64,000 nucleotides of DNA, taken from the IMG/VR virus record IMGVR_UViG_3300035698_015907; one strand, 5' to 3'. A model generated the notes under the pieces. That model saw only the letters and a program-made list of their open reading frames with translations. It did no database searches and was not told the DNA's origin. Within the stretch, counting starts at the first letter, position 1. The number at the start of each line of letters is the position of its first letter. The position numbers and the translations under genes were made by a program. Positions 20,782 to 61,708 of this stretch are shown here, piece after piece. The DNA comes from a virus.

Positions 20782-21690
20782 TTAGGAAAATAAGAAAGTA
20801 CCATTAGATGTAAATGTATGAATAGTGTTTCCACTAGAAGAAGTTATTGTTCCTCCTGTGGCTATTACGGAACCAGTATAACTAATGATTACAACACCAG
20901 ATCCACCAGGACTTGCATCAATATCTGCATTAAGGCGGCCACCGCCCCCGCCTCCACCTAAACCATCAGTTCCAGGTGCAGTATTAGCAGCGTCAGTTCC
21001 TCCATAACCACCGCCCCCTAGTCCTCCAACACCAGCGTCTTTGCCTTGAGACGAACCACCACCACCACCTGCATAGTAAACAGATGAGCCACTGATATCG
21101 AAAGCAAGACCGTCTCCACCGTCTCCACCATTAGCATAATCTGAACCAGAACCATTAGCAGATGAACCAGCGCCGCCTACTGCTCCAGCTCCACCACCAC
21201 CAGCAGCAGATGCCCAACCAGAGCCTACTGTGTTTCCACCTGCATGGCCTTGGCCTGCGGTATTAGCTCCGCCGCCAGCGCCATTAGCATCTCGTGATGC
21301 TCCACCGCCTGATCCGCCTGCTTCTCCATACTCAACATCATATGATCCACCGCCTCCTCCACCCACAGCAGTGAGAGAGAAAGCAGTAGTGTTAGCACCA
21401 TCAGACCCATTATATGAACGGCTGATAGCTGCAGCACCGCCGCCGCCAACTACGATAGTGTATGATCCATTAGCAATATCTATATTATCATGAAGAAGTC
21501 CACCGCCTCCGCCTCCGCCTCCGCCGTAGGTTCCACCGCCGCCGCCACCTGCGACTAAGAGATATTCAATATAGAGAGAATGTCCTGGCCAAAGTGCACT
21601 AATTTTATACTCTCTAACATCATTAAGATTCCATATACCTGATGTGGAATTAGCAGAAATTGGTGCATTATTTCCTATGTATCGACCCAT
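20782..21690 (-). CDS. glycine-rich domain virion/fibre tip protein
   Basis: SGIWNL N-terminal anchor; EYLLVAGGGGGG..YYAGGGGG..GGSGVVIISY..ATGG..IHTFTS. Confidence 0.75.
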   Translation of the reverse strand: MGRYIGNNAPISANSTSGIWNLNDVREYKISALWPGHSLYIEYLLVAGGGGGGTYGGGGGGGGGLLHDNIDIANGSYTIVVGGGGAAAISRSYNGSDGANTTAFSLTAVGGGGGGSYDVEYGEAGGSGGGASRDANGAGGGANTAGQGHAGGNTVGSGWASAAGGGGAGAVGGAGSSANGSGSDYANGGDGGDGLAFDISGSSVYYAGGGGGSSQGKDAGVGGLGGGGYGGTDAANTAPGTDGLGGGGGGGRLNADIDASPGGSGVVIISYTGSVIATGGTITSSSGNTIHTFTSNGTFLFS

Positions 21691-33747: not shown

Positions 33748-33981
33748 TTATATAGGAAGTCTCCTAGTTTTAGGTAAAAGATTCATATCTTCAGCTTCAA
33801 CTTGTAATTTACTTTTTAGAGGTTCGGATTTTTTTATAATAGCAGCGGCAGTTTCTATCTCAATACCATTCCTTTCACAATATTCTACTATAACATCAAA
33901 ATATTCAGCGCCAGTATCTTCTACTTTGCGTTCTATTGCTCTTAACATTTCAATGGAATCTAGCATTCCATTAACTTTCAT
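33748..33981 (-). CDS. gp33: late transcription coactivator gp33
   Basis: IERKV..YFDVIVEYCE.NGIE.E..LKSKLQVEA..NLLPKT. Confidence 0.9.
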   Translation of the reverse strand: MKVNGMLDSIEMLRAIERKVEDTGAEYFDVIVEYCERNGIEIETAAAIIKKSEPLKSKLQVEAEDMNLLPKTRRLPI

Positions 33982-34661
33982 AAATGATTAATCTCCTCAA
34001 ATTCCTTTCTTATTTCTAAAAACTTTCCTATATAATCTCGGGATTTCTTTTTGAAAACCTTAGCTATAGGATCACCATCTCTCATTATTATAACAACTAT
34101 ATCTTCAAGTGTAATACCAAACATTTCATATGCCATAAAAGCATATGCAGCACCTTGCATGAAATATGATTCAATATCAGTTTCATACTTATCTCTAGCA
34201 CTAGTTTTAAAATCGACAATAGATTGGACGCCATCAAACTCTGCTATTAAATCAGCAGTGCCCGCAGATTTTAATCTACGAGAAAACATTTGTATTTCTG
34301 TGTGAAAAATATTATCTACGGAAATATCTAATACATTTTTAATAGGTATAAAATCCACTAAAATGAATGGATTCACATCTACACTATTAAGTCTATTATT
34401 AAGATAATCCTCACATAACTCATGCACCGCTGTGCCTCTCAGAGAGGCTCGCTGTGAGACTAGGTTAGCCTCCTCCTCACCAACACGAGCCCTCCACTCG
34501 CTTATGTGTGTGTCACTGAGCATAGACAGGACAGAGGTGACTGACGGAAAAGCGTCCCCGCCAGGCACTCTGTATAGTCTGTGTAGTTCCGAATCGATGC
34601 GCTCAATTGGAACGTACTTATCTTCTGGAAAAGATAAGTGAGTAAATGATTTGTGTTGCAT
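33978..34661 (-). CDS. PD-(D/E)XK (Cas4-like) exonuclease
   Basis: PSVTSVL..W..RVG..RGT.VH..CE, AGTADLIAEF..IVDFKTS, YFMQ..AYA. Confidence 0.85.
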   Translation of the reverse strand: MQHKSFTHLSFPEDKYVPIERIDSELHRLYRVPGGDAFPSVTSVLSMLSDTHISEWRARVGEEEANLVSQRASLRGTAVHELCEDYLNNRLNSVDVNPFILVDFIPIKNVLDISVDNIFHTEIQMFSRRLKSAGTADLIAEFDGVQSIVDFKTSARDKYETDIESYFMQGAAYAFMAYEMFGITLEDIVVIIMRDGDPIAKVFKKKSRDYIGKFLEIRKEFEEINHL

Positions 34662-36345: not shown

Positions 36346-37209
36346 CTAAAATTCATTTATATTTTCGAATAGATTGACCAGTCTTTTATCCATAAAGTAC
36401 TTTACAAGTTTACTTCTATCCCCTTCTTTTTGGGAATTAAAGCTTTCTAATATACCAGTTTTGATATTATCTGGCACGCATTCGACATCTACCATTGTTT
36501 TGTTGCGTATAAAATTATCTTTCTCAGATATATCAAGACACGCATCAATAGGATCTTCAACAGACATAAATCGTGCCATGACCTTTTTAGTCACTGGCTT
36601 CTGCCTAATTCCCATAACAAATGAATTATCTGGTGATAGAACATTAGGGACGCCGTCCCCAACATCACCACGAATGATGTGTTCAACTAAGTACTTTTTT
36701 GGATCATTATGTACAATCATACGTTTATTTATTGGATCATATTGTTCAACATTCGGAAATTTTTGTAATTGTATAAAATCTTTGTCACTAGATACAATCA
36801 AAATGCGATTTTGATTATTAAGAAACTCTGTACTTCCTTTAGCTGCTAGTACAGCTATAACGTCATCTGCTTCCGCTCGAGGAAAATCTACTACTTTGTA
36901 GGGGAATACTTCTATTAAATCTGTCTTAACAATATCTAATAGAGAAAATATTTTATTCCAATCTAGTGTTAACTTATCTCTTGATTTCTTTCTACTAGCT
37001 TTATAATGTACATAAACATCTTTTCGCCATGATTTGCCACTATCAGCACATATAACTAATTCACCAAAATCATTCTTAAATCTCTTTCTGACAGATCTAA
37101 GTGAATTTAATATCATATGTCTAAGTAGATTTTCGTCTAATTCATCTGTGTTTTTAATAGATTGAAATAGATTTGAAAACATGATTTGAGATAAATCGAC
37201 TAATATCAT
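36346..37209 (-). CDS. rnh: T4-type RNase H (5'-3' exonuclease)
   Basis: MILVD, LRHMILNS, WRKD..YKASRK, EADDVI, SSDKDFIQL, GDVGDGVPN. Confidence 0.95.
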   Translation of the reverse strand: MILVDLSQIMFSNLFQSIKNTDELDENLLRHMILNSLRSVRKRFKNDFGELVICADSGKSWRKDVYVHYKASRKKSRDKLTLDWNKIFSLLDIVKTDLIEVFPYKVVDFPRAEADDVIAVLAAKGSTEFLNNQNRILIVSSDKDFIQLQKFPNVEQYDPINKRMIVHNDPKKYLVEHIIRGDVGDGVPNVLSPDNSFVMGIRQKPVTKKVMARFMSVEDPIDACLDISEKDNFIRNKTMVDVECVPDNIKTGILESFNSQKEGDRSKLVKYFMDKRLVNLFENINEF

Positions 37210-38183
37210 AGTTGGCCTCTTAGAAACATATCCCACTCAATTTCTCTAACATCCCAAGAATAGAATGTATCAATATACTGAGAAGCATTAAACAGTCTTG
37301 TGTTCATAGCTCCAGATCTAGTGAGATCGATTGTCTGTCTTAACATATGGGTGAATATACCAGCATGGTCTCTTACACTATTTTGATATTGGTACATCAT
37401 AGTCCAATTAGCAGAAGTCTCATATAATGCAGCATAATTTGAATGAACACAAGCTAATCCAGCTGACATTGCTTCTATCAATGATATACAGCTAGTCTCA
37501 GGCCACTTTGATGGATATGCAAAAATATCATACTCAGGCAATTTCTTAACCAGGTCTTCGTGTGGAACAGCACCATGATAATTAATTGCGGGATGATTTT
37601 TCAGAAAAGAAAAAAGCTCTTCATATTCTTTGTCTCTTTCTTCCCAGCCATAAATGGAAAAACTAGAAAAGACATCGAGCGTAATATTCTTATCAACATT
37701 TTCATAGATATGATTAAATGCTGATGCTAATATATCTAAACCTCTGTGGGGTGTAGTATGATAAACCAATTTGATTGGTTCATCGGAAGGTATTATACCT
37801 TCTCGCTGACGCTTTTCTAAAGGTATAATAGCGTTTTTAATAACTTCGCATTTATACCATGGAATTGAAAAATGCTTAATATATGCTTGCATCTGCCAGT
37901 TGCTAACGAAAACTAGCTTATCAAAATGATTGTATCCACCTTCTTTTAAGAAGTTAGCTTCGGGGTCTTCAGGAAGATCGTGAGCAACAAATATCTTTTT
38001 CTTTGAATTATCTAAGTCTCTTACTCTTGAATGAATTATCTGAAAATTGCTTAATAATTCAGGATCAATCCGTTTAATCATTTCTTCAGCAATTAATTCT
38101 GTACCACCTCGAGCTTTGTTAGTAGTATCTTCTCGAATTAATTTGCCACCTAATATTTGAACCATATAGTTCCTATACTCCAT
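37206..38183 (-). CDS. GT-B (GT4-like) glycosyltransferase
   Basis: GGTE, FVSNWQ, YHTTPHRGL, AYPS..PETSCISLIEAMSAG (ExxxxxxxE). Confidence 0.88.
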   Translation of the reverse strand: MEYRNYMVQILGGKLIREDTTNKARGGTELIAEEMIKRIDPELLSNFQIIHSRVRDLDNSKKKIFVAHDLPEDPEANFLKEGGYNHFDKLVFVSNWQMQAYIKHFSIPWYKCEVIKNAIIPLEKRQREGIIPSDEPIKLVYHTTPHRGLDILASAFNHIYENVDKNITLDVFSSFSIYGWEERDKEYEELFSFLKNHPAINYHGAVPHEDLVKKLPEYDIFAYPSKWPETSCISLIEAMSAGLACVHSNYAALYETSANWTMMYQYQNSVRDHAGIFTHMLRQTIDLTRSGAMNTRLFNASQYIDTFYSWDVREIEWDMFLRGQL

Positions 38184-38932: not shown

Positions 38933-39427
38933 TTAACTCCTATTTAATAGGTGTACCGATTTTGTGATGTGCTTTCTATGTATTTTGCCACCTATGAATG
39001 AATTATAAAAATCATCTCTTATTAAAGCGTCCCTTACAATTTGTTCTCTCATTTCAAGATAATTCATATCGCCTTTAGAAGAGCACAAGTAAAGTATTTT
39101 TCTCGAAAAGCATTCTACTCCAAATTTTTCAATATCATTTTTCAGTTCAGCCGAACTTCCATAATATTCTTTCCAATCTGAAGAAATCCTAACTCTCTTA
39201 GTACGCTTTCTAGATTTGTTTTTAGGAAGCTTTTTTATCGCCCATAGGCCTTTTTGACCGATGTACTTTTTGCCATATGCGGCAGGGCTAAGGCATTCAA
39301 TTATATACACAAAACCAGCAAACTTTTGCAGTTCGCTATCTGGTAGGGTCAATTTAACCCCACTCTCAACAAGCCACGGATTGTTGTATTCTTGATCTGT
39401 TATTGATATTTGGTTTATGTCATCCAT
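38933..39427 (-). CDS. GIY-YIG nuclease, endonuclease II (DenA)-like
   Basis: GFVYII..KKYIGQK, SDWKEYYGSS, F.RKIL.LC..KG..NY.E, FYNSFI. Confidence 0.8.
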   Translation of the reverse strand: MDDINQISITDQEYNNPWLVESGVKLTLPDSELQKFAGFVYIIECLSPAAYGKKYIGQKGLWAIKKLPKNKSRKRTKRVRISSDWKEYYGSSAELKNDIEKFGVECFSRKILYLCSSKGDMNYLEMREQIVRDALIRDDFYNSFIGGKIHRKHITKSVHLLNRS

Positions 39428-43773: not shown

Positions 43774-44787
43774 TTATATTTGTTTATATTCAGAAAGCTT
43801 TACTGATGCCATGACACCATAGAATGTGTTTTTATCAATAATGTCTTTTACTTCAGCTGCAGTCATCCCCGCAACTATCATTTCATTCACATCTTTTCCT
43901 GGCACACTATTTGGCCAAATGCACACATGTCTACCGTCACTTATGAACTTCTTCATAAGTTTTAATATCTCTTTATTCCTAGGCTCGTTATCTAGGATTA
44001 TGATTGAATCATTAAAGTCTGGAACACTTCCTGAAGAACCCGCAAAAGCTATTGAGTTCTTTATAAAGAAGGAATCTATAGGTCCTTCGAATATGTATAC
44101 TCTTTCGTTAGGATCTATCTTATCCATACCATAGAGTTTATTAGCATTCTCATCAAATTTTATTGTGATGTATTTGAGTGCTGATTTGCTTTTAAACGAT
44201 CGTCCTGTTACAGCGAATATTTTACCCGTAGAATCTATAAACGGTATGACCAATCTAGGTTCATCCATTTTAAGTTTAGATTCTTCAAATTTATTAGGTA
44301 CTATAGTGTTTATCCACTCCATATATCGAGTGGTAAAATATAATCTCTCATAAACTGTAGTTGGTATCTTTCTTTTATCAAGATAAGATATAACTGGGTG
44401 TTCATCAGGAAAACTAGTTATTTTAGTTAAATTAGACAATACACCAGGAATTTCTTCCACAACATTTGGTGTATCTATATTTTTATCTGGCTTGTAAGTA
44501 CCGCTACGAAGCTCTTTTAATAGCTCAAGTCTATATTCTCCATATAGACCAACATCTAGTTCTTTTAAAAGTTTAGAAAATGTAGTGCCATAACCACAGT
44601 TGTGACACTTGTAAATTAATCTACCATCTAATGAATAGATGTATCCTCTAGCTCGAAATTTATTTTTTTCGGAGTCGCCGCATATTGGACATCTAAAATT
44701 CCAAGCGCTACCTCTTTTAGAAAATCTTTCTAATCTAGGAGATAATAAGCTTAAATATTTCTCTTCAAGCCAGATATAGCTCAACAA
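43774..44787 (-). CDS. gp61: DNA primase gp61
   Basis: RCPICGDS..YKCHNC zinc finger, EPRLVIPF, EGPIDS, DNEPRN, KDVNEM. Confidence 0.95.
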   Translation of the reverse strand: MLSYIWLEEKYLSLLSPRLERFSKRGSAWNFRCPICGDSEKNKFRARGYIYSLDGRLIYKCHNCGYGTTFSKLLKELDVGLYGEYRLELLKELRSGTYKPDKNIDTPNVVEEIPGVLSNLTKITSFPDEHPVISYLDKRKIPTTVYERLYFTTRYMEWINTIVPNKFEESKLKMDEPRLVIPFIDSTGKIFAVTGRSFKSKSALKYITIKFDENANKLYGMDKIDPNERVYIFEGPIDSFFIKNSIAFAGSSGSVPDFNDSIIILDNEPRNKEILKLMKKFISDGRHVCIWPNSVPGKDVNEMIVAGMTAAEVKDIIDKNTFYGVMASVKLSEYKQI

Positions 44788-47594: not shown

Positions 47595-48646
47595 TTTTTA
47601 TGATTCTTTCCTGTGAATCTTTGATTAACGATCTTTAATGCTCTCATCGATCCAGAAACTACATCAAAAAACTTAAGAACAAACCCTTCAATATCTCTTT
47701 CATTTATTACTACGTCAGAACAATTTTTCAGCTGCTTAACCAACTCTATAACATTGTTATAGTGCTGCTCATTTTCTGTTATATCTCTTAGAATGTTATC
47801 ATATTTTTTATTAATATTCTCGATGGCTTTTTCTCTAACCATCTTTGATACTTTTTTCTGTTCTTTCTGAATTAGAAAATTTTTGAATGCATCTATGTCC
47901 ATAGAATTAAAATAGTATGTTCTGAAAGACGAATTCAAGAATTCATTTAGTTCTTTTTTGTAACCAATTTTTTCTATTGATTTCGCAGATTTCACATTCT
48001 TAAGTAGAGATTTTACTGATAAATTACATTCCATTAATCTGAGTGATGTGATATAACTATCACTGATGTATGGCGTGTTTTTAACATAATGGATGGATTT
48101 ACTATTTCTATGTGGGTCGCTTTCGCATGGTACAAATTTGCCATCGACACATTTAGATGTTATAGTGATAGCTAATTTCTTGTTTGGATCGTAGGTAGAA
48201 CCCAAATCATATGTTATAACATTCGGTGTTATGTAACATGATAAACCGCTGTCATCATATTCCATCCATCCAATTTGATATAACACATTTTCACCACCTA
48301 ATATTTCTTCAGCATAATCTAATGCTATACTAAGAATTTTTAGCTGGTTTTTCTTGTCTGAATAAGCTTTTTCAATATCAGATTTATTAGTGAACATAGG
48401 AGATTTAACTCCTTTATATCCTACAGCAGGCAAGCTATTATGGATACCAACTTTTATAGACATAGCATCGTCTATTTTTTCTGAAATTTCACATCTAAAA
48501 GAATTAGACCCCATAGCTTTAAGTGACATTTCATCAAAGCACACTGATGCTAATTCTAATGATTCAATACACTTTTCAGCATTTTCATCAAGTTGCCACA
48601 CGTGATCAATATGTTCTATGACCGGAGGCTTTATATCAATACTCAT
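47576..48646 (-). CDS. RNA-ligase-like nucleotidyltransferase (DUF6267-like)
   Basis: HIDH, motif I-like SEKIDD, TPNVITY, motif IV EGFVLK, motif V LKIVN..F..N. Confidence 0.6.
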   Translation of the reverse strand: MSIDIKPPVIEHIDHVWQLDENAEKCIESLELASVCFDEMSLKAMGSNSFRCEISEKIDDAMSIKVGIHNSLPAVGYKGVKSPMFTNKSDIEKAYSDKKNQLKILSIALDYAEEILGGENVLYQIGWMEYDDSGLSCYITPNVITYDLGSTYDPNKKLAITITSKCVDGKFVPCESDPHRNSKSIHYVKNTPYISDSYITSLRLMECNLSVKSLLKNVKSAKSIEKIGYKKELNEFLNSSFRTYYFNSMDIDAFKNFLIQKEQKKVSKMVREKAIENINKKYDNILRDITENEQHYNNVIELVKQLKNCSDVVINERDIEGFVLKFFDVVSGSMRALKIVNQRFTGKNHKKWHQTP

Positions 48647-50229
48647 TATATAATCCTAATCTTGAGAACATTTCTATTTCCATCATAATCAACATGTCGT
48701 AACACCGTTTTAATTTTTAATTCGGCGTTCAAATCTTTAAGTATTTCAAGATTTTCAACTCTATCATCCCACATCTGTACTTCATCATATGATCCATTTA
48801 CAACTAAATCTTTTATAACACGTTTCTTATTTTCTTCGGTAGTTTCATTATTCAATTTTATATTGCCAGATCTATGAATATGTATTTTGTTTGCATCGAT
48901 ATTATATTCATTCAATTTCTTTAAGAATATATCATGATCAGTGAAATCTGTTCTAGCTGTTACTATAATAACATCTTTTCCGTCATTTGATAATTTTAGC
49001 ATTCTATCAATCATTTTTTGTATAGGTAATGCATTACCAAAGAAGTGTTCAGAGTCTTTAAATGTTTCATAAGAAAATGAATGATCATTCATAAGTTCAT
49101 GATCATGATATTCTTTTGTAGATAATTTATGTACAACAGCACCAGATTTATCTATTACATGAACTGATGGTTCAGTACCTTCTTTATACCAGAATAATGT
49201 ATCATCCATATCAAAAATATAGAGCACACGCTTTTTTCTTTTTCGTTCATTAAGCATTTGTACTTTAAAATCACCACGCCAATTAGTAACAGGTCCAGAA
49301 TTTGTTCGTATTGATAAAGTAGCAACTATTTCTTCTACTTGAAATTTCTTATTGAATGCTAGAAAATTGATATTAATAGAATTACTGTTATTGTGAACTC
49401 TAAAATTTTCATATTTCTCAGAAGCTTCTTTAGTCTTCCGTTCAATGTTATACACATCAAACAAAGCACCAGCTGGATGCACTCTTACATGCGTTCTATA
49501 ATGTGGAAAAACAGTATCATGACACGAAGCTTCAATTATGATATTTTTGATAAAATCAGAGCTGCTATTTTCTAATGAGTTTCTAATAGCTTGAGCTATA
49601 TTGCGTCGATATGCTAAACTAGATTGTTCAGCTTTTTTCGCAATATCAGTGCCTTTCAGACTTTTATATCTGTCATGATTTTCTTTTGCTGTGCCATTAA
49701 AACCGAGCTGTTTTATGTATTTGTCATGTTGTTTTCTAAAAGAATTTAGATAATCAATTTTTAATTTTTCTTCTAAAGTCGAACAACCAGAATTTCTTAA
49801 TGTAGCATGTTTTGATGTACCGTACTTAGCTGAAATACCAATAAAGTTACCGGTAGAAATAGTCTGTATCATTAAATCAGCATCAGAATTTATATCTTTG
49901 ATACCAGTAAGTTTTTCATGCTCACCTATAGATCCTAAGCTGTCATCAAGTGATGTCCATGTAACGCTCTGAACATCAGTAGTGTTACATAGATGGCCAT
50001 CAACATGCAGCGCAGATTTAATATGTTCTGATAAAGAATATGAATGCTCAGATATTAAATCACAAGCTTCAATTCCTAGTGTATTAACACATACATTATA
50101 AATTTCAGATGGAGAAGATTCTTCAGATCTAAAATGATTAGGCCACGTATTTCCAGATAAAGCCCATGCTAACATTATTTCATGAGCTTTACCGCGAGCA
50201 TCATGTTTGCTCCCGTTAATTCTTGTCAC
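48646..50229 (-). CDS. fusion: restriction-like PD-(D/E)XK domain + HAD phosphatase (RNA-repair type)
   Basis: N: GKAHE..DADLMI..GISAK; C: YIFDMDDTLF, IVTAR, K, WDDRVENL. Confidence 0.65.
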   Translation of the reverse strand: MTRINGSKHDARGKAHEIMLAWALSGNTWPNHFRSEESSPSEIYNVCVNTLGIEACDLISEHSYSLSEHIKSALHVDGHLCNTTDVQSVTWTSLDDSLGSIGEHEKLTGIKDINSDADLMIQTISTGNFIGISAKYGTSKHATLRNSGCSTLEEKLKIDYLNSFRKQHDKYIKQLGFNGTAKENHDRYKSLKGTDIAKKAEQSSLAYRRNIAQAIRNSLENSSSDFIKNIIIEASCHDTVFPHYRTHVRVHPAGALFDVYNIERKTKEASEKYENFRVHNNSNSININFLAFNKKFQVEEIVATLSIRTNSGPVTNWRGDFKVQMLNERKRKKRVLYIFDMDDTLFWYKEGTEPSVHVIDKSGAVVHKLSTKEYHDHELMNDHSFSYETFKDSEHFFGNALPIQKMIDRMLKLSNDGKDVIIVTARTDFTDHDIFLKKLNEYNIDANKIHIHRSGNIKLNNETTEENKKRVIKDLVVNGSYDEVQMWDDRVENLEILKDLNAELKIKTVLRHVDYDGNRNVLKIRII

Positions 50230-50452
50230 TCACTCCTTCCTTCTTCTCATCATCAAAAGCAGATCCTGTGCACATATCATTCATAATTGCAAAAACAAAA
50301 TCTTGATTCTTTTCAACCCATTCATCAGGAAAAAACATAGTATCAATTTCTCCATGACAATGCGCATCAAGCTGCGTAGTATGTTCGTCATCTAGTTTTT
50401 TTGATGTAATCTTTTGAACATACTTTTTACATTTCTTGCATATTATTTTCAT
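50216..50452 (-). CDS. hypothetical small metal-binding protein
   Basis: CKKC..HCHG. Confidence 0.5.
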   Translation of the reverse strand: MKIICKKCKKYVQKITSKKLDDEHTTQLDAHCHGEIDTMFFPDEWVEKNQDFVFAIMNDMCTGSAFDDEKKEGVSDKN

Positions 50453-50841
50453 GTATATTTCTTTTTAAGATCCTTTACGTATGCATCAGTAACGTTTTCT
50501 GCTACAGTTATAGCAGTGTCAGCGTCGCTGCCAGCTTCGATGATTCCACTATATGTTATATTCCAGATTTTGGCTACATGATCTATTAGTATAGAATCAA
50601 GCCAATATCTTGCTAACATTTCATAATCAGCATAACAATCAGCTGCTCTATCGAATAGAGTGTCTATATCTGATCTGATATGAGGAAGATTATGAAAATC
50701 TTTTACTAGCATGCGCTCCTTCTTAGAAGGCTTTTCTTTAAACAAAAAATCTACATTACATGCTGTAAAAAATTCCATCCTTTTTAGGACTTGATTCCAG
50801 TATTCTTCTATTTTGTCTTGATCAGTCATAGTAGGAGGCAT
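50449..50841 (-). CDS. hypothetical protein
   Basis: First gene behind a sigma70 promoter. Confidence 0.55.
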   Translation of the reverse strand: MPPTMTDQDKIEEYWNQVLKRMEFFTACNVDFLFKEKPSKKERMLVKDFHNLPHIRSDIDTLFDRAADCYADYEMLARYWLDSILIDHVAKIWNITYSGIIEAGSDADTAITVAENVTDAYVKDLKKKYT

Positions 50842-50865
50842 AATTCATTCTCACACTAAAAAAAT

Positions 50866-50894
50866 ATTGTACAATGAATTATGTTCTTTGTCAA
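50866..50894 (-). promoter_or_regulatory. sigma70-type early promoter
   Basis: TTGACA(50889-94)-N17-TACAAT(50866-71). Confidence 0.8.
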
Positions 50895-50898
50895 TATA

Positions 50899-51543
50899 TT
50901 AAAATTCTTCGTATTTTCTTTTTATATATTCAGCTTCATCCATGTGTTCAACATAACCATCTGAATCTGTGATTATATAATCATCAAACTTTATGATTCT
51001 TTTAGAATTAGTCTTTGTAGAATAATAGTGTATTTCATAAAGTTTTTCATTAATCATTGTATGATTTAAGTTAATATTAGTCGCAACTATAGATGATCTG
51101 CAAGATGAAGTAACAGAATTAAGCCATAGAGAAATTTCTAATGCTGAAGATTGTTTACCATCAAACTTTATAGCATATAATTTCGCTGGATTAATTTTTA
51201 TTATTTCTTTCATTCCTTTTACTGGAGGAACTACAATATAATTTTCATCAAACAAATATTCTGGAAAACTATGTTTATTATTAGTATCACAATCAATAAA
51301 AACTATATCAGTTTCACAAGTATCTAAATTTGTTATCTTAGAAATAAAACACACGTTATTAGGAACATATTCATAATCGCGGCCATCACCAGCATCACCA
51401 TCATTCACATAGTGTGTAGGCTGTAGTTTTTCTTCTTCATATAAAGCAAATCTTTTATTGATATTAGCAGTATAAGAATTCTTTGCCAAATCAACTAGAA
51501 TGTTCTTAAGTTTGCTTGATATTAATTCATCTTCAAATTTCAT
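50899..51543 (-). CDS. hypothetical protein
   Basis: ATGA-coupled; C-terminal AIKFDG..DYIITDSDG small domain. Confidence 0.55.
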   Translation of the reverse strand: MKFEDELISSKLKNILVDLAKNSYTANINKRFALYEEEKLQPTHYVNDGDAGDGRDYEYVPNNVCFISKITNLDTCETDIVFIDCDTNNKHSFPEYLFDENYIVVPPVKGMKEIIKINPAKLYAIKFDGKQSSALEISLWLNSVTSSCRSSIVATNINLNHTMINEKLYEIHYYSTKTNSKRIIKFDDYIITDSDGYVEHMDEAEYIKRKYEEF

Positions 51544-51785
51544 TTTCTTGTACCATCCTCAAATGCACTTTTTGTTGCGTTTTTCATTATTATTAAATCA
51601 TAAAGAGATATATTCCATTTTTTAGAATATTCTTCTATTGCGCCAATCAAATCTGATAATTCTATCAAACTCATAACATGATTGTTTTGTTCTATCGCAT
51701 CAATGAATTCAAGATATTCTTCAGTTATCTTAGAAGCTTCCCCAAATTCACCTTTCGGTATTTCAGTTAGATGATATGCCATCAA
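51540..51785 (-). CDS. MazG/HisE-like all-alpha NTP pyrophosphatase
   Basis: YHL..I.KG..GE.SKITEEYLEFIDA..ELSDLIGAI (EExxE..ExxD). Confidence 0.65.
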   Translation of the reverse strand: MMAYHLTEIPKGEFGEASKITEEYLEFIDAIEQNNHVMSLIELSDLIGAIEEYSKKWNISLYDLIIMKNATKSAFEDGTRK

Positions 51786-52379
51786 TCATTCCTCATATGT
51801 TTCTAAACAATTTATCAACTGGGACAATCTAGGCTCTGCTACACCTGTGCCATAAATCCAAGTTCCTAACAAAGTAGAATTTCTTATACCATATGATCCC
51901 AATTCATATCCAAAATATGTAATATCACATCCTTCATCAGTTTTGTCAAATCTTATACCTTTATCATGAGGTACAATCTTTTTGAAAAATTCTGATGCAT
52001 CATCCATCATCTCATCTAATAATCTAGACAGATAATCTTCCTCAGCATTAGAATCTATTATTATAAGTTCATTTTTGATGAAATATTTAGTGTGCAATTC
52101 ATCAAATTGATTATCTCTGATGCAAGGTGTTACCGTTTGATACTTACCATCTGGTAGATAACCTTTTGCAAGCATATACAAAAACGATTGTTCACCACTT
52201 CCAACGAAAGTTTTCTTTTTACCTCTGTGTTCAACATGATAATTTGAAGCAAAATCGGGTTTAGTTATATTGTTAATATCTTCTGTAACAAGCCATGGCG
52301 CTTCAATTCTAGTATAACCACAACTTTCATAATGCGTTATTGATATATCAATAATGCCATAATCTATAGTTCTATTCAT
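51786..52379 (-). CDS. stand-alone class II aaRS-like catalytic core (197 aa)
   Basis: Motif 1-like GYTRIEAPW, GSGEQSFL, motif 2 TPCIRD..H..YF.K.E, ELGSYGIR, motif 3 YGTGVAEPRL; no anticodon domain. Confidence 0.7.
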   Translation of the reverse strand: MNRTIDYGIIDISITHYESCGYTRIEAPWLVTEDINNITKPDFASNYHVEHRGKKKTFVGSGEQSFLYMLAKGYLPDGKYQTVTPCIRDNQFDELHTKYFIKNELIIIDSNAEEDYLSRLLDEMMDDASEFFKKIVPHDKGIRFDKTDEGCDITYFGYELGSYGIRNSTLLGTWIYGTGVAEPRLSQLINCLETYEE

Positions 52380-53388
52380 GAAATAATTTCACCATTTTAT
52401 CTATTATCATGTAATGATCAAATGCTAAAGCATTTTTCATATTAGTTCGAACATAATCTAAATCTATCCAACCAACCCAAGCAGCATCATCTTTTGCTTT
52501 AATTTCTATGTCATAATTATCATCTAGTATGTGACCATAAGCTATGGATATAATAATAGCTCGTGGGTCACGGTCCTGGTCGCCTGAGACCACCACATGC
52601 TGACCTAAGCTTAAGCCGTGAGTGACCTCATGCAGCTTTATGTGGGTCTCCTCATAAAGCTCTCTTATAGCTCCCTCTAGTGGCGTCTCGCCAAGCTCAA
52701 AAAATCCACCAGGCAGAGCAAACCCTCCAATATAAGGATTCTTCTTTCTTTTTATGAGCAATATTTTGTTGTTTTGAATTATGACATTATCACATGTTAT
52801 GTGTGGTCTAATCCCGTGAGAAGTTATATAATAACTGCTGGAGTTATACATATCAACAACGTTTTTAATTTCGGGATTTTTAAAATTATCTAAAACAATG
52901 TCATGGTGTCTGTTAGACACCCATGCTAGATCAAGAATGCTACTATTTTTACGATCTACATTCAAATTTTTATAATAACATTCTCTTATAACAGTAGAAT
53001 TAACTGAATTAATTTTTTCAGCTAATACTACATTCCAATATGGTTGAAATGAATTAATATAAGAATATTCATCTAAATTTTTAACATGAACATAAAGAGA
53101 ATTATCTCCAGGTCCAATTAATTTCATAATATTTCTAGACCACAGTTCAGTATTACCTACATCATACATATGATGTACTAGAACTCTATTTTTATATTGC
53201 TCCGGTATAGCGCTATCAATGATTTGTAAGCGTTCTCTGAATGTGAACGGGTCTCTAGCAGTTCTCATCTGATTCGGAGAACACACTATTAAATGAAGAT
53301 AATCACAATCTGCTAAAGCTTTTTCAACAACTGACATGTGCCCAGAATGAAAAGGCTGAAATCTACCTATTACTACAGAGTTTTTCAT
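52372..53388 (-). CDS. bifunctional NMN adenylyltransferase / ADP-ribose Nudix hydrolase (NadM-Nudix)
   Basis: IGRFQPFHSGH, RDPFT..ER, NSTVIR; Nudix box GGFFELGETPLEGAIRELYEET; RDPR; AFDH. Confidence 0.9.
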   Translation of the reverse strand: MKNSVVIGRFQPFHSGHMSVVEKALADCDYLHLIVCSPNQMRTARDPFTFRERLQIIDSAIPEQYKNRVLVHHMYDVGNTELWSRNIMKLIGPGDNSLYVHVKNLDEYSYINSFQPYWNVVLAEKINSVNSTVIRECYYKNLNVDRKNSSILDLAWVSNRHHDIVLDNFKNPEIKNVVDMYNSSSYYITSHGIRPHITCDNVIIQNNKILLIKRKKNPYIGGFALPGGFFELGETPLEGAIRELYEETHIKLHEVTHGLSLGQHVVVSGDQDRDPRAIIISIAYGHILDDNYDIEIKAKDDAAWVGWIDLDYVRTNMKNALAFDHYMIIDKMVKLFHE

Positions 53389-54614
53389 TATAGAACTCTC
53401 AGAAGAATTGTATTTTCATTAATTCTACCATTAGGCTTATATCCACTCCCATTGAGAGTGTCCATATATTTCTTAAGTGCTACTTTACCAGATAACATAA
53501 TGCCATCTAATCTTTCTTTAGTTTGACGTCCAATCTTTTTTGATATGGATTTTTCTTCATCATAGTTAAGAATTGTAGTTCCCTTAACACTAAAACCTTG
53601 ATCATTTCTTGCTCTATAGAGAGTTAGTAATGTGTACTTTGAATTGTAAATCCAAAGTTCATTAGCACCAAGAATTTTGATTGGGCTTATGGATTCCATT
53701 TTAGTATCAGGATCTTCTTTCTGATACTTTAGACGAGAAATAAGTTTTTCTGCAGATACTGGTTTTTTTCTTCTAGCTTTTCTGACTTTGGGTTCATCAA
53801 TATCATTAGAAGACTTTTTAGTTTGCTTAGATTTCTTAGTATCGGAAAGAAACGCTCTGCAATCAAAAAGAATTTTTTCAGCTAAAGTTCTGCTCTTTTT
53901 AAGTTGACCAAAACTTTTTCTCTCAATCTCATCTAACTCAGATGTATCAGAGTTTAATAGTCTATCACAATCTTTAATAAATTCTTCTATCTCAACCATC
54001 ATGTCTTTTACATGTTCGGGCTGAACTTCATCATCTTTCAGAATTTTGATAATATCAATAGCATTATTCATCCTCTTTTTTGGAAGAGGATCAAAAGCAT
54101 TGAATGCTTCATTCAATATTTCAAGATAACGATCAAATTTTAATTCTTGCGGGGATCTTTTAAGTGAAGGTAGTCGAAATGGCTTTTTTGTTTTGAAAGA
54201 TTCTTCGACATCACGAAATTCTTGATCTACACTTTTTATCTTTGTGAGTTGACTTTCAAAAAGATTAATGTAATAATCTTCATCTTCGAAAGTCTCTTCT
54301 ATAAGAAGCATTCTAGCAATCCAGCATGCTGAACTGCCAAAGCCAAAAATACGAGACTCATGTATTCTTTTAATATTATCAACATCTTCAAATCTATTAA
54401 TAGATGTTAGATAATCAGTTAAAAAGTTTTTTGCTTTCTTGTAATCCACTACATTAAGTGTATACCAATTGAAAGCTGTTGAAACTTCTGTATGGGACAT
54501 TGGATGATCATATGTGATCTCAGTCCCATAAGCTTTTTTATTCAAAGCAGCGAGGGCAGATTTTCCCATCCGTCCTGCTGATACTTTGGCAGGTTTCTTA
54601 TCTATCCTAGCCAA
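53388..54614 (-). CDS. conserved T4-like hypothetical protein
   Basis: AFNWY N-terminus; SISPIKILGA..WIYN..SVKGTTI..NGRINENTILL C-terminus. Confidence 0.7.
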   Translation of the reverse strand: MARIDKKPAKVSAGRMGKSALAALNKKAYGTEITYDHPMSHTEVSTAFNWYTLNVVDYKKAKNFLTDYLTSINRFEDVDNIKRIHESRIFGFGSSACWIARMLLIEETFEDEDYYINLFESQLTKIKSVDQEFRDVEESFKTKKPFRLPSLKRSPQELKFDRYLEILNEAFNAFDPLPKKRMNNAIDIIKILKDDEVQPEHVKDMMVEIEEFIKDCDRLLNSDTSELDEIERKSFGQLKKSRTLAEKILFDCRAFLSDTKKSKQTKKSSNDIDEPKVRKARRKKPVSAEKLISRLKYQKEDPDTKMESISPIKILGANELWIYNSKYTLLTLYRARNDQGFSVKGTTILNYDEEKSISKKIGRQTKERLDGIMLSGKVALKKYMDTLNGSGYKPNGRINENTILLRVL

Positions 54615-54641
54615 TTTTTATATCCCATATTATTAGAGTAT

Positions 54642-54670
54642 ATACTATCACACTTTAATTTCAATGTCAA
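54642..54670 (-). promoter_or_regulatory. sigma70-type early promoter
   Basis: TTGACA(54665-70)-N17-TAGTAT(54642-47), overlapping the 3' end of the HNH gene. Confidence 0.7.
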
Positions 54671-55244
54671 CAGCGTCGATCTCTTTATTAGATCCTCTTT
54701 GAATGATTTTACCAGTCCAATTCGGTAGAAATTGAACCCAATCAGGATCATCAACAACAATCGGAAACTTAGACCTGATTTGCATCATTTCATAGAAAGA
54801 TGGTGTCCAAGGAGTTTGCCGTGGCTTCCATTTCGGTGACAATGAATCACCTTTTGCATTATTACAATCTTTACAAGAAGCAACAACGTTATCCCACGTG
54901 TGTTTACCGCCTGCTGCTCTTGGCATTAGATGATCATAAGTCATGTTAGATATACTTAATGGATCACCACAATATTGACAAAGACAATGATCTCTGTAAA
55001 ATAGTGATTCCTTTTTAAGTCTAACATCTTTTCTGAAAGAATGACTATTGAAGTTAGCAATAACAGACGGCCATTTCAATCCAAGGTCTTTCACTGTTTT
55101 AATACCATCTTCATACCAAAGTACAACAGTGCAGTTATCAGTAAGATAACGAGTTATCGCATCTTCAGCTGGTATTGTATATAGAGGAAACATTGATAAT
55201 GGCATAAAACTAGAATTTAATACTAGAGTACGTCTGTTTTTCAT
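54648..55244 (-). CDS. HNH endonuclease (McrA-like)
   Basis: TLVLN, PSVI, RD..CQYCG..TYDHLMPR..GG..W.NVVASC..CN..KG. Confidence 0.9.
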   Translation of the reverse strand: MKNRRTLVLNSSFMPLSMFPLYTIPAEDAITRYLTDNCTVVLWYEDGIKTVKDLGLKWPSVIANFNSHSFRKDVRLKKESLFYRDHCLCQYCGDPLSISNMTYDHLMPRAAGGKHTWDNVVASCKDCNNAKGDSLSPKWKPRQTPWTPSFYEMMQIRSKFPIVVDDPDWVQFLPNWTGKIIQRGSNKEIDAVDIEIKV

Positions 55245-55258
55245 TTCATAATCTCATA

Positions 55259-55293
55259 CAAAAATGAGGCTAAGCCCCTCGACTTAACCTCAT
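55259..55293 (-). terminator. Rho-independent terminator after DUF1127 gene
   Basis: 13-bp stem AUGAGGUUAAGUC/GGCUUAGCCUCAU with GAGG loop, then UUUU. Confidence 0.8.
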
Positions 55294-55324
55294 ATTTCAC
55301 CATATACTATGTTTTGTCAAGGCT

Positions 55325-55489
55325 TTACATAATATAATTCTTTTGTTCCATAGCAATAGCTTTAATATCGGCACGTGAAATGCCCAAATCTGAAAGCGAT
55401 CTATTATCTAAAGAAGATAGTTCTCTTACTGTATTCTGATACTGCATCCATCTTTTGAATGAATTCTTAATATTTTTCATGACACCCAT
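55325..55489 (-). CDS. DUF1127 (YjiS-like) small protein, 54 aa
   Basis: Not in track; MGVMKNIKNSFKRWMQYQNTVRELSSLDNRSLSDLGISRADIKAIAMEQKNYIM; AGGAG RBS. Confidence 0.88.
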   Translation of the reverse strand: MGVMKNIKNSFKRWMQYQNTVRELSSLDNRSLSDLGISRADIKAIAMEQKNYIM

Positions 55490-55587
55490 GATGTTCTCCT
55501 ACTTTTCTATAAGTTATTATACCTTATATTTAGCGCAAGAAACATGGATAATTGGGTATACCTACTATTCACTGAGGTTGACCCTCT

Positions 55588-56244
55588 TTACTTGTGCTTA
55601 TCTTTGTGGACGTACACAACATCAGCAACTGACATACAAACTCTATCATATCCAAGTGATTTCATATGTTCTTCACCTTTTCTATCATAGCTTTCTGCAG
55701 CAACTACTGGCTTAAATTTCTTTATTGTTTCATCAGCTCCAAGTATAGCTTTGTGTTCGTGACGTTCTATATCAAGCCATAATAAATCGCATGCATCTAA
55801 TTCAAGTTGATCTACTTTAAATGCTGGAATATTTTTAGTTGAACCAGCATCAATAGTATTCATACCAAGATTTCTACTATTATTAACACTAATTCCAACT
55901 AAACCATTTTCATCAGATAATGCTGCATTAAATTTGAATATGTTATCAAATGGAGTATTCAGAGCTAAACACAAAAAACTTAGAGGATATGGTTCAAAAG
56001 TATAAACTCTCTTAAATCTTCTTCCAAGCATTAAGGGATACAATCCCATGTTTCCGCCTGCTTGAACTACAACATCAAATTTTAAAACTCTACTAAATAT
56101 TTCTTTTCTGTGAGTTTCCCAATCTTTGTGCGGTCCATGCCAAGAACCTGATTCACCTTTAGGCCACCAAAGACCATTTACGCCTTCATCAGCTATAATT
56201 TTTTCATTGTCAAGATGAATTTGATTTTCGAAACTTTCAGACAT
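55588..56244 (-). CDS. FkbM family SAM-dependent methyltransferase
   Basis: VVQAGGNMG, VYTFEP, NAAL, DLLWLDIE.HE..AILGA..TIKKFKPVV..E. Confidence 0.88.
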   Translation of the reverse strand: MSESFENQIHLDNEKIIADEGVNGLWWPKGESGSWHGPHKDWETHRKEIFSRVLKFDVVVQAGGNMGLYPLMLGRRFKRVYTFEPYPLSFLCLALNTPFDNIFKFNAALSDENGLVGISVNNSRNLGMNTIDAGSTKNIPAFKVDQLELDACDLLWLDIERHEHKAILGADETIKKFKPVVAAESYDRKGEEHMKSLGYDRVCMSVADVVYVHKDKHK

Positions 56245-56803
56245 TTCTATTGAACACTGCTAATATGGCTGCTTCACCCTGTGAATCTATATCTCTGGTT
56301 CCAATACCAGTCCACAAACCAGATGGCTCTGTTACATCTTCTAATGAAATTTTATTCCATTTTATTAATTCCCACTGGAACCACTGCTCTCTTCTAGAGT
56401 CATACAAATATATTTCATTTGAATCTGGATAGAGTATTTTAAAAACTTCAATAGCCCAAGCAGTTCCACCTATTACAAGGCCAGTATCTATATCAAGGCC
56501 AGCGACAGCGTAAACAGAATTAGTATTTTTAACTTGCCAATAATTTCTTCTAAGCAAATTATTGACATGATCTGATTTAGTGGGGAATTTTCTTTTTAGA
56601 ACTTTGTTAGCCATACACAATAAAGGATCAGCTAAATTAAGGTCTTGTTGAGATAAAACTTTTGAACCTTCATTATTAGAAGATCGGTGGGTTTCAAAAA
56701 CATAATTAATATATTCATGACCAGCTCTTTTAGCTGCTTCTATCCAAAGAGTATCAGCTCCAATCGCGCCGCCCGATTGACAGTAATTAATATTCGAACT
56801 CAA
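56237..56803 (-). CDS. SLOG-superfamily protein
   Basis: SGGAIGAD..W, LLRRNYWQV, GGTAWA, GIGTR. Confidence 0.7.
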   Translation of the reverse strand: MSSNINYCQSGGAIGADTLWIEAAKRAGHEYINYVFETHRSSNNEGSKVLSQQDLNLADPLLCMANKVLKRKFPTKSDHVNNLLRRNYWQVKNTNSVYAVAGLDIDTGLVIGGTAWAIEVFKILYPDSNEIYLYDSRREQWFQWELIKWNKISLEDVTEPSGLWTGIGTRDIDSQGEAAILAVFNRNV

Positions 56804-56982
56804 GGTAATTCAATTCCTGTGAAAATCTTAATCATGAAAATATTAAGAAGAATAAAAGAAAATACATAAACATAAAGATCATTATGTTCTGCGAATGCTA
56901 ATGCAAACATTGTTATGATGGTAGAAATAATACCAGCAACAACAAATATACCAGAATAAATCAACGCATCCATAAACAACAT
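56800..56982 (-). CDS. small two-TM membrane protein
   Basis: Two hydrophobic segments; overlaps the next start. Confidence 0.5.
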   Translation of the reverse strand: MLFMDALIYSGIFVVAGIISTIITMFALAFAEHNDLYVYVFSFILLNIFMIKIFTGIELP

Positions 56983-57004
56983 TATTTTCCAGCTTTACAT
57001 TTTG

Positions 57005-57451
57005 TTATGTATTAGCAGCAGGCTTCTTTACAACAGGCTTCTTAGCAACCTTCTTTACAACCGGAGTTTTAACTGAAGGCTTTTTAGCGGCTGGCTTCTT
57101 TACTGGTGTTTTCCCAACAGAAGCTTTTTTGACTCTTTTCTTTGGAGCTGGCTTAGGTGTTTCCACAACATTAGAAACAACTTCTGCTTCAGTAGATTTT
57201 TCTTTTACTACCACCACTTCAAGTGTCGCAGAGCCTGAAGAATTCAAAGATTCTTCATTGTCAGTCGCAGCATCTATAATAAAAGTTTGTGACTTGAATT
57301 CTAGTTCATCGCCAGGTACCATTAACGAATGCATTAATGCATTCGCAGTTTCTTTACTTTCGCGGTCTTTGCGTCCAAAATAATAAACAGCCCAGCAGAC
57401 TAATACAAATCCACCAACAAATAACAAGCTCCACATAAGTTCAATGTCCAT
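57005..57451 (-). CDS. membrane-anchored protein with H1-like Lys/Pro/Ala/Val-rich tail
   Basis: N-terminal TM helix; acidic linker; KKPAAKKP/KTPVVKK repeats. Confidence 0.7.
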   Translation of the reverse strand: MDIELMWSLLFVGGFVLVCWAVYYFGRKDRESKETANALMHSLMVPGDELEFKSQTFIIDAATDNEESLNSSGSATLEVVVVKEKSTEAEVVSNVVETPKPAPKKRVKKASVGKTPVKKPAAKKPSVKTPVVKKVAKKPVVKKPAANT

Positions 57452-57674
57452 TTAAATTCTCCTTAATTGCACTATTTGTTTCAATCCATTCTATAAGATT
57501 GTTTCCATACGAAGCATCTGAAATCGTGATAACATTAGGAAAATTTCTTTCAATCATTTCTGTAGCTTCATCAAAATTACGAACTATTACAGTTCCATTT
57601 TTATATGGGACTTCAGCAATACCAGTATCCGTAACGAAGAGTTCATAATCACTCTTTCTTATCATATTTATCAC
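57441..57674 (-). CDS. hypothetical protein
   Basis: Directly behind TATAAATA (57678-57685); start may be ATG 57665. Confidence 0.55.
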   Translation of the reverse strand: MINMIRKSDYELFVTDTGIAEVPYKNGTVIVRNFDEATEMIERNFPNVITISDASYGNNLIEWIETNSAIKENLNGH

Positions 57675-57696
57675 TCATATTTATAAATTCAACGTG

Positions 57697-58095
57697 TTAT
57701 TTTGAATACACAATCCACTCAGGCTTAATTTCACATGAGATAGAAAAGTGTGGAAAATGACCTTCAGTAGTTACTAAATAACCCGAATGAACAGAACCAT
57801 CTGTATCAGGTTTATTTTCAGGATAGATATTATCTTTATTGTTCTTAAACCAGTTCTGCACCATTTCTGCTATAGCTTCTGGACTTTCTCTATCAGACAA
57901 AAATTTATTATATGTAGTTGAATCAGAATTTGTCGCCCAATGGAGAAATAAACTTTTCCCTCCATCAGATACAGTCCAACCACAAAAATCACTGTTTATT
58001 AATCTAAGTAAAACTGCAAGTCGACTTACACTTTCACCAGTAGCTCTTAATGAAAAGAGGCCATTTATACCTCCTGAAATATCTTCAGACATCAT
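57697..58095 (-). CDS. hypothetical phage protein
   Basis: PDTDGS..GY..IKPEW..YSK motif; GAGG RBS. Confidence 0.55.
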   Translation of the reverse strand: MMSEDISGGINGLFSLRATGESVSRLAVLLRLINSDFCGWTVSDGGKSLFLHWATNSDSTTYNKFLSDRESPEAIAEMVQNWFKNNKDNIYPENKPDTDGSVHSGYLVTTEGHFPHFSISCEIKPEWIVYSK

Positions 58096-58104
58096 ATATC
58101 CTCT

Positions 58105-58650
58105 TCATACCGTTTCAACTTCTAACGAAACACCTTGAGCTTCTATCATAGTTTCAATCTCATCAAAAGAAACTGGTGTATATGCAATTCTTTCAACAGA
58201 TATATTCAAATATCTCTTATCAGGTAAAACTCTTTCATGAATATGGCCGTGAACATTAGCTTTAATTCTAATTTCATGCTCACCAAGATAAACAGGACGA
58301 TGTGTTAATAGTATCGGTCCCATCCTCCTAGATTCCATCACTTTTTCAAAATGCTGAAAATAGAATTCAAAGTCTTTACGTTCAGCATAATCATGATTTC
58401 CTAAAATCAGACGTTTGTGACCATTCATTCGATGTAAAAGAGGTGAAAGCTTTTTGATACCAAACCCTACATCACCAAGACAATACCATTTATCATAAGG
58501 ACGAACAACTTTGTTGTGGCACTCAATGATATGCTCATTCATTTCATCTGCATCAGCAAATTGGCCACGAAAAAGATTTCCATCATCATCTTTGAATGTG
58601 AGAATCTTTGCGTGATTTAAATGTAGGTCGCTTGAGAAAAATAATGTCAT
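58105..58650 (-). CDS. calcineurin-like metallophosphoesterase
   Basis: SDLHLNH, LGDV, GNHD, THRP, HGHIH, NISVE. Confidence 0.9.
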   Translation of the reverse strand: MTLFFSSDLHLNHAKILTFKDDDGNLFRGQFADADEMNEHIIECHNKVVRPYDKWYCLGDVGFGIKKLSPLLHRMNGHKRLILGNHDYAERKDFEFYFQHFEKVMESRRMGPILLTHRPVYLGEHEIRIKANVHGHIHERVLPDKRYLNISVERIAYTPVSFDEIETMIEAQGVSLEVETV

Positions 58651-58656
58651 TTAAAT

Positions 58657-58685
58657 ATTGTACTACAAAAATAATGCTTTGTCAA
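58657..58685 (-). promoter_or_regulatory. sigma70-type early promoter, probably leaderless transcript
   Basis: TTGACA(58680-85)-N17-TACAAT(58657-62)-6 nt-ATG. Confidence 0.8.
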
Positions 58686-58689
58686 CAGA

Positions 58690-59250
58690 TTATTCAGTAT
58701 CATCTTCATTTGTATCTAATGCTTCTATGAATTCATCATCTGTAGGTAGTTCATGTAAAGTATATTCTTTCACAAACTTAACTGGTTCATATTCACCACC
58801 ATCATCAAAGATAGAAGAAGGAAATCTTTCACCTTCACCTACTAGAATTTTGTTGCACCCTTCATAAATTTCAAACATTTCTCTATCAAGATCTATAATA
58901 TAAGCCCATTCACAAAATAGACTATCACCTGCAAAATCAATGTCATTTTTAAGAACTATTTCATTAGAATTATTATTTTCATTAATGAACTTAATAATTT
59001 GTGCGCCGTGAATTCGGTGAGTGAAAGGAAATTTTTCAACATAACTTCCTGTAAATTCGCTCTCAGTGCCAAATCTGCATTGATCTAAGCTGTTCTTGAA
59101 ATTTTCAATACCATGATCTTCTTCCATGATATTTCTAAGTATTGTTAAAAGATCAAGACCTTGACCTCTAGGATAACCATACCACTGACCATACTGTGCA
59201 ACAACAGGTTCACCATTGCGATAAACCGCGATAAGATGTCTAGTACCCAT
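58690..59250 (-). CDS. conserved phage hypothetical protein
   Basis: MGTR..AQYGQW.GYP..G, CEWAYIIDLD motif. Confidence 0.65.
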   Translation of the reverse strand: MGTRHLIAVYRNGEPVVAQYGQWYGYPRGQGLDLLTILRNIMEEDHGIENFKNSLDQCRFGTESEFTGSYVEKFPFTHRIHGAQIIKFINENNNSNEIVLKNDIDFAGDSLFCEWAYIIDLDREMFEIYEGCNKILVGEGERFPSSIFDDGGEYEPVKFVKEYTLHELPTDDEFIEALDTNEDDTE

Positions 59251-59251
59251 T

Positions 59252-59704
59252 TTAATTCACTCCTTCATTTCCAACTATAGGTCCACCTGGAAATACAGCT
59301 AGACCACCATTTTTATATCTAACTAATCGACCGCTTCCACAGCAAATCTTACATTCTTTTTCACCGAAGAAATCTAATCCCATTAGACCATAATCAGAAA
59401 CATGACCATATCCTGCACATTCATAGCATTCTACAAAATCATGATTTTCTTTGAATTTGTTTAACATAGATGACATGCCAAATTCTGGATGCATGCCATC
59501 AGACAATGTTGATATAACATCTAAATATCTATTCCATGAGGGGACTTGTTCATAATGATTATGTAATTTTTTAATTGCGATATATATTAAAGCAGGATTA
59601 CAAAATGGATTATCTACACTTTCAAGTATTTTCTTGTAAAGCTTTTCCACATCGCCATGCAATAACATAGCATCAATATAAGAATCTGTTACAGAAACAC
59701 TCAT
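59252..59704 (-). CDS. DnaJ-type zinc-finger protein
   Basis: CYECAGYG..CKICCGSG. Confidence 0.55.
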   Translation of the reverse strand: MSVSVTDSYIDAMLLHGDVEKLYKKILESVDNPFCNPALIYIAIKKLHNHYEQVPSWNRYLDVISTLSDGMHPEFGMSSMLNKFKENHDFVECYECAGYGHVSDYGLMGLDFFGEKECKICCGSGRLVRYKNGGLAVFPGGPIVGNEGVN

Positions 59705-59856
59705 CAGAGCTTGCTTAAAACCTTTTTAACTTCTTTGATAGTTTCCTTAACACCATTTCTAAGTTCGGTGTATTGCTTAATTTTCTTCTCAAACATAACA
59801 TGTTTATCATTAAGAACAACAAGACGATCTTCTAATTCTTTTTTAGTTTCTATCAT
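59704..59856 (-). CDS. 50-aa coiled-coil protein
   Basis: Not in track; MIETKKELEDRL..KVLSKL; TGATG-coupled to the next gene. Confidence 0.5.
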   Translation of the reverse strand: MIETKKELEDRLVVLNDKHVMFEKKIKQYTELRNGVKETIKEVKKVLSKL

Positions 59857-61646: not shown

Positions 61647-61708
61647 TTAATGTAACCACATTTTGTTCAGTTTTATATTTGTTATTTAAGCTCTCTGAAA
61701 AATAAACA

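Follow-up and report, generated by a model that had tools for sequence, protein, structure and literature searches.

What could clear a common three-letter word from both strands of two short stretches inside phage genes, while the encoded proteins remain unchanged? The window considered here, the whole 64-kb stretch of DNA that was analysed, is part of an AT-rich (34.5% G+C) T4-like phage genome and contains baseplate genes, gp32, gp59, gp33, an exonuclease, PhoH, RNase H, a GT4 glycosyltransferase, NrdA/B, a primase, and NAD and RNA-repair genes. An initial annotation had singled out 34410-34588, within the exonuclease gene, as a recoded island with a twin of similar signature and length about 18 kb away. 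Both exist, and in each the word has been purged from both strands by synonymous respelling. W denotes A or T in the words GAW/WTC and GWW/WWC, and the features concerned are the following.

34407..34592, strandless: patch 1, with a GAW/WTC-free core at 34407-34547, about 55% G+C and sharp edges.
33978..34661, minus strand: T4-like exonuclease of 227 aa (PHROG 298, PD-(D/E)XK/Cas4-like), of which patch 1 occupies about codons 24-85.
52547..52704, strandless: patch 2, with no GAA, GAT, GTA or GTT on either strand and about 54% G+C.
52372..53388, minus strand: NadM-Nudix-like protein of 338 aa (nucleotidyltransferase plus Nudix), whose Nudix box region is covered by patch 2.

A recount of 34410-34588 returned the figures first reported, namely 25 GAS/STC, a single GAA (34547-49), six GTW/WAC and a G+C content of about 55% (54.7%, against 34.5% window-wide), together with zero GAT/ATC and zero AAT/ATT. 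The strict GAW/WTC-free run at 34407-34547 measures 140 bp and is the second-longest in the 64 kb; the longest is patch 2, at 157 bp, and the third-longest reaches merely 69 bp. GWW is nearly missing from 34417-34547, and GAT/ATC and AAT/ATT are absent out to 34592. With the protein held fixed and window codon usage assumed, codons 26-84 of the exonuclease contain one GAW where 15.9 are expected (log10P -12.1), and no spelling of the protein could hold fewer; patch 2 contains zero GWW against 22.3 expected (P about 1e-15). About 6,000 copies of the avoided motifs remain elsewhere in the window. In contrast to its patches, the window as a whole has GAW and GWW enrichment indices that rank among the highest in a set of about 300 phage loci. 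The patches are a selected feature at the level of the double strand, far beyond chance, and the deficit (for patch 1, P about 1e-12) survived control for GC. The further description of a dispersed selected element is borne out as regards selection; the two patches are, however, the only ones in 64 kb, and they share no sequence by which such an element could be recognised. Elsewhere in the window, a gene of unknown function in the structural region (20782-21690, PHROG 2295) reaches 55-60% G+C, yet does not obey the GAW rule.

The host gene of patch 1 is intact: its product matches the PHROG 298 profile over its full length (E 1.8e-63), and every invariant exonuclease column is kept through the patch. 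The lone TTC/GAA at 34547-49 is forced by the protein, at Phe38 (codon 34548-34550). It had been described as unavoidable at Phe-Pro, which is correct given Phe38; position 38 is, however, Tyr in 16 of 17 non-redundant homologues, and Tyr could be spelled there without GAW. The GGAAA context of this site may be tolerated. Lysine is absent from the patch 1 part of the exonuclease, whereas all 17 non-redundant homologues have it; the selection may thus extend to the residues themselves, although this is no more than a hint. A 233-aa 'variant' exonuclease (P0121 / L027) was considered as a separate allele and rejected, as its DNA is identical and was translated with TGA as Trp. The gene that hosts patch 2 lies in an RNA- and nucleotide-repair cluster (48646-63175) that also encodes an RtcB ligase, a tRNA nucleotidyltransferase, a HAD/PNK-like protein and a stand-alone class II aaRS-like protein.

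Motif, GC, rare-codon and dinucleotide-step models were compared by their likelihood over the synonymous spellings. GC alone gains 36 lnL units and GAS with GC 44.9, whereas GAW with GC gains 63.5, rising to 69.5 when GTW is added and to 74 with AAT; the AAT/ATT deficit itself is marginal (lnL +4). After fitting of GC3, GC and rare-codon terms, the coding-strand deficits remain significant both for GAA/GAT (0 against 8.8 expected) and for TTC/ATC (1, the forced site, against 8.5). Conversely, the GC3 and rare-codon terms all but vanish when motif avoidance enters the fit, with a modest G+C preference staying. The signal is avoidance of a strand-symmetric word, and GAS enrichment is not its driver; a Mom-like target (GAS/SAS enrichment) was rejected by the same fits, as were models of GC only and of rare codons only, after whose control the motif terms stayed significant. 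GAW/WTC is strictly avoided in both patches, and GTW/WAC completely in patch 2 and weakly in patch 1; CWW, GGW and GCW show no depletion in the patches. The simplest consensus, anchored on one G:C pair, is 5'-WWC, which is GWW on the other strand. WTC and WAC contexts account for 27% and 19% of cytosines, and cytosines in contexts other than WWC are kept or enriched within the patches.

These fits bear on the most ordinary accounts, in which the patches would be an assembly artefact or a DGR-type variable region, or would follow from local GC drift, an antisense ORF or RNA structure. The raised G+C is what drift would give, and a 69-aa off-frame ORF does overlap patch 1; the motif terms, however, outlast GC control, and patch 2 has no open antisense frame, so that none is common to both. 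Neither an antisense ORF nor GC drift, named at the outset as what might explain the whole pattern, does so. RNA and single-stranded DNA folding, proposed earlier as a check, is not significantly better than in shuffles for either patch (z -1.2 to -1.8), and Rfam has no match over either. No second copy of a patch that could act as a DGR-type template lies within the window, and the strand symmetry of the rule is unlike the one-strand, adenine-specific change of a DGR variable repeat. Several assemblies from ENA, Logan and JGI contain the window DNA, both patches included, at 99.9-100% identity. Four independent contigs agree in every base of the exonuclease region, and patch 2 is unchanged in three other assemblies; the patches are therefore not assembly errors. 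Taken together, this family of explanations is scarcely credible. One ENA contig, k141_195373, stops at most 10 bp from the left edge of patch 2 (window 52557), its last 141-mer being the patch, and three other assemblies read through; this is possibly chance, or else a coverage step or graph fork.

The two patches have sharp edges and similar lengths, and no consensus common to them emerged above chance. The short words reported as shared with the island at 52.6 kb are not in excess (8 shared 7-mers against 10.9 expected under a trinucleotide-matched null), and a hairpin like the central 7-bp one of the reported near-palindrome arises in 14.5% of such nulls. A length of about 150 bp together with a scarcity of AA/TT and AT steps could point to selection on the mechanics of the DNA, its bendability or groove width, for wrapping by, for example, a small terminase ring or gyrase. 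Such wrapping is a very improbable explanation: the dinucleotide-step model gains 47 lnL units against 63.5-74 for the motif models, AAA/TTT is tolerated, and no helical periodicity of 10-11 bp is present in the patches. Dinucleotide-shape models were rejected for the same reason, fitting much worse than motif models.

Might the patches have been acquired ready-made? The closest exonuclease orthologues (54%, 48% and 45% identity) have the same gene order and ordinary codons, without a patch; GAW counts are 8-28 in 80 orthologous segments and 6-21 in 22 segments picked for GAG-GAG-GAG codons. Synonymous-site conservation, which the initial annotation had put forward as a check, is thus not seen, as orthologues at 48-54% identity do not keep the patch and the feature is therefore lineage-specific. 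The island residues are 49% identical to the closest syntenic relatives, below the median of 61% for other homologues; over the remainder of the exonuclease, the syntenic relatives are the most similar (58% against 43% for others). Approximately unbiased (AU) tests reject nesting the island with the syntenic relatives, although at borderline values (p 0.02-0.047); one tree, in which the protein stands basal to the clade of those relatives, survives with both partitions (p 0.106 and 0.07). Import of the patch 1 tract is, from these residue comparisons, possible, and the earlier argument against transfer is accordingly weakened.

Recombination, or conversion by a homing endonuclease, from a donor that avoids GAW/GWW genome-wide would account for such tracts, and two free-standing nuclease genes lie in the neighbourhood.

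38933-39427: SegE-type GIY-YIG endonuclease, 4.4 kb from a patch.
54648-55244: HNH endonuclease, 2 kb from a patch.

Conversion tracts of homing endonucleases, with their shifts in GC3, resemble the patches in being short, synonymously GC-shifted stretches within conserved phage genes. The patches differ from them in that no nuclease gene abuts either one, in the near-zero GC3 term, and in the lack of a G-then-C switch (four-fold sites give p = 1.0 in both patches, with all-site trends running in opposite directions). The SegE-type gene also occurs in two relatives (L022 and L239), which have no patch. A donor was sought by protein region, where the best match was 68%, by blastn of the patch 1 DNA against 50,697 phage records, which gave no significant match, and by a codon-specific pattern search, which found nothing; none of about 300 phage loci shows genome-wide GAW avoidance, and the roughly 100 orthologous segments counted above all hold 6-28 GAW. 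Import thus seems rather improbable as an explanation of the patches.

Precedents were sought in 6,882 ORFs (6.4 Mb, from 19 phage genomes and about 300 loci) by a codon-aware scan, which looked for places where a degenerate trinucleotide of any kind is locally almost wholly lost. The patches rank first and fourth; ranks 2, 3 and 5 are a low-complexity ORF, a repetitive long gene and a general AT-run deficit, and no other conserved gene in the 6.4 Mb of comparison phage DNA contains a comparable patch. None is present in the ten modified-base phages scanned (CAjan, 9g, Mu, M6, ViI, phiW-14, RB69, T2, T6 and nt-1, several of which modify in a context-dependent manner). Three further loci may be recorded. 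L001:7201-7350 and L004:1996-2146, from another marine phage clade, have 17 GAS against 4 GAW, and the scan did not pick them out. L441:3662-3742, the corresponding place in an orthologous exonuclease, has an 80-bp GAW-free run (6 against 12.3 expected); this locus was chosen by a GAG-containing pattern, and its GAW deficit is therefore biased.

A strand-symmetric word anchored on one G:C pair is the kind of rule followed by context-specific DNA modification in phages. CAjan carries dPreQ0 modification at two motifs (PMC7544227), a T-dioxygenase prefers NTC (PMC13229309), and glycosylation of 5mC/5hmC is directed by GpC in other phage modifiers (10.1101/2023.12.21.572611). Like these systems, the patches point to a short degenerate context in double-stranded DNA; unlike the present phage, the ten modified-base phages scanned keep no motif-free patches, and therefore the patches would be a new feature and not a trait of that group. 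We know of no modifying enzyme specific for WWC.

Our preferred explanation, to which we give a probability of about 0.4, is that the phage places a hypermodification on cytosine in the context 5'-WWC, and that a DNA process with a long footprint uses the patches, which would stay free of it, as landing zones. The phage would carry hydroxymethylcytosine and, after replication, would add a bulky group according to context, strongly at 5'-W-T-C and more weakly at 5'-W-A-C. Two intragenic zones of about 150 bp have been cleared of those contexts on both strands by the respelling observed, and a process hindered by the modification would act only there. The most plausible candidates for such a process would be terminase loading with the cut that initiates packaging, and the start of replication or recombination through a programmed break or the loading of a helicase. 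The sequence is also compatible with the opposite sign, under which the modification would spare WWC and cover the patch fully. As WTC occurs about every 10 bp elsewhere, a gap of about 150 bp would form a unique address that needs no consensus. Such an address by absence predicts patches that are alike in length and sharply bounded, that do not depend on the host gene, and that lack any common sequence, periodicity or fold.

Terminase is an attractive candidate for the reader because T4 has no defined pac consensus, putative pac sites being placed in genes 16 and 19 under a synapsis model (PMC9958956). The T4 pac sites and the patches have in common that two sites without a defined consensus are embedded in coding genes of a T4-like phage; the patches differ in lying within exonuclease and NadM-Nudix genes, in having no homology to each other, whereas short homologies link the T4 pair, and in being defined by the absence of a motif. 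The nearest analogy outside phages is the vertebrate CpG island, which is likewise rich in G+C and would owe its meaning to the state of its modification. CpG islands keep their target motif and stay unmethylated, whereas in the patches the motif has been deleted while the DNA still encodes protein.

A candidate enzyme for the supposed modification is encoded in the window.

37206..38183, minus strand: GT4-type glycosyltransferase, a possible but unproven enzyme of DNA modification.

Four IMG/VR relatives encode proteins 51-63% identical to a T2 gene, which we take to be gp42, and at least two of them share the GT4 gene. The GT4 family is also common to DLP_6, phiM12, Cr30, RHph_I1_18 and OC, none of which has a gp42 match; in Cr30 its neighbours are genes for heptose and UDP-sugars, so that GT4 may have a substrate other than DNA. 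Only a small number of restriction sites are avoided in the window, far fewer than in Ochrobactrum phage OC, and this was counted in favour of modification, as was the presence among them of TTTAAA and TATATA, which contain no C and are avoided about two-fold in the coding DNA. On the other side, GATATC (2 observed against 21.8 expected in window coding DNA) and GGATCC (0 against 7.2) both contain WTC yet are strongly avoided; it is thus not evident that they gain protection from the supposed modification. AAGCTT is enriched in the coding DNA. Also counting against WWC modification are the loss of AAT/ATT, a word without C, the residual G+C preference in the patches, and the lack of a precedent in the ten modified-base phages and in the four gp42-bearing relatives, which have no such patch.

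The loss of AAT/ATT is more easily absorbed if the reader of the word is a primase. Under that proposal the patches would be loci that melt—a replication origin, R-loop or D-loop—and that have been purged of primase start sites, or of the trinucleotide recognised by a single-strand nuclease or toxin. Primases recognise trinucleotides on either strand, T4 gp61 using 5'-GTT or GCT (PMC10359460). All the avoided words can be written with a central T (ATC, TTC, ATT, GTT, GTA), and the phage encodes a primase of its own, a gene that bears only on this proposal.

43774..44787, minus strand: divergent phage DNA primase.

Unwinding elements are AT-rich, and the T4 R-loop origin consists of a promoter followed by an AT-rich unwinding element. 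The patches, by contrast, are G+C-rich at about 55%, promoter-like sites show no excess over chance near patch 1 (27 against 23), and no late promoter is close. No comparable site-free zone is present in T2, T6 or RB69, and a gap of 150 bp is small relative to an Okazaki fragment, which makes selection at each site hard to explain. Purging of melting loci is an unlikely explanation.

Site-by-site purging would also follow if a defence of the host or of a competitor, with a three-base requirement, attacked only these zones and escape mutations removed the motif. A CRISPR PAM of the TTC type is an example of such a requirement, and the counts do fit additive selection per site on both strands. 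Nothing was found, however, that defines a 150-bp zone, about 6,000 of the same motifs persist in the window, and ATC together with GTW would demand a very broad PAM, leaving defence escape quite improbable. The remaining probability belongs to mechanisms not thought of.

A search of the literature on modification-free phage regions gave nothing relevant, and the feature, for which no described counterpart was found, has so far been seen in one phage; the modification mechanism that we infer for it is a proposal. In a wider and tentative form, to which we incline a little less than to the account for this phage, consensus-less functional cis-sites would be marked as synonymous zones of about 150 bp that escape the phage's own context-specific hypermodification, with the avoided word predicting the specificity of the pathway (here 5'-WWC, WTC over WAC). 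Under any of the rival explanations, the patches are still a strong selective signature that points at two exact loci and awaits explanation. If the modification account is true, they represent a new kind of cis-element, whose address is the absence of a modifiable three-base word and which would be invisible to motif searches and conservation screens. It would then be possible to predict the specificity of an uncharacterised enzyme from sequence alone, and there would be a testable route to how T4-like terminases or replication machines choose their sites without a consensus.
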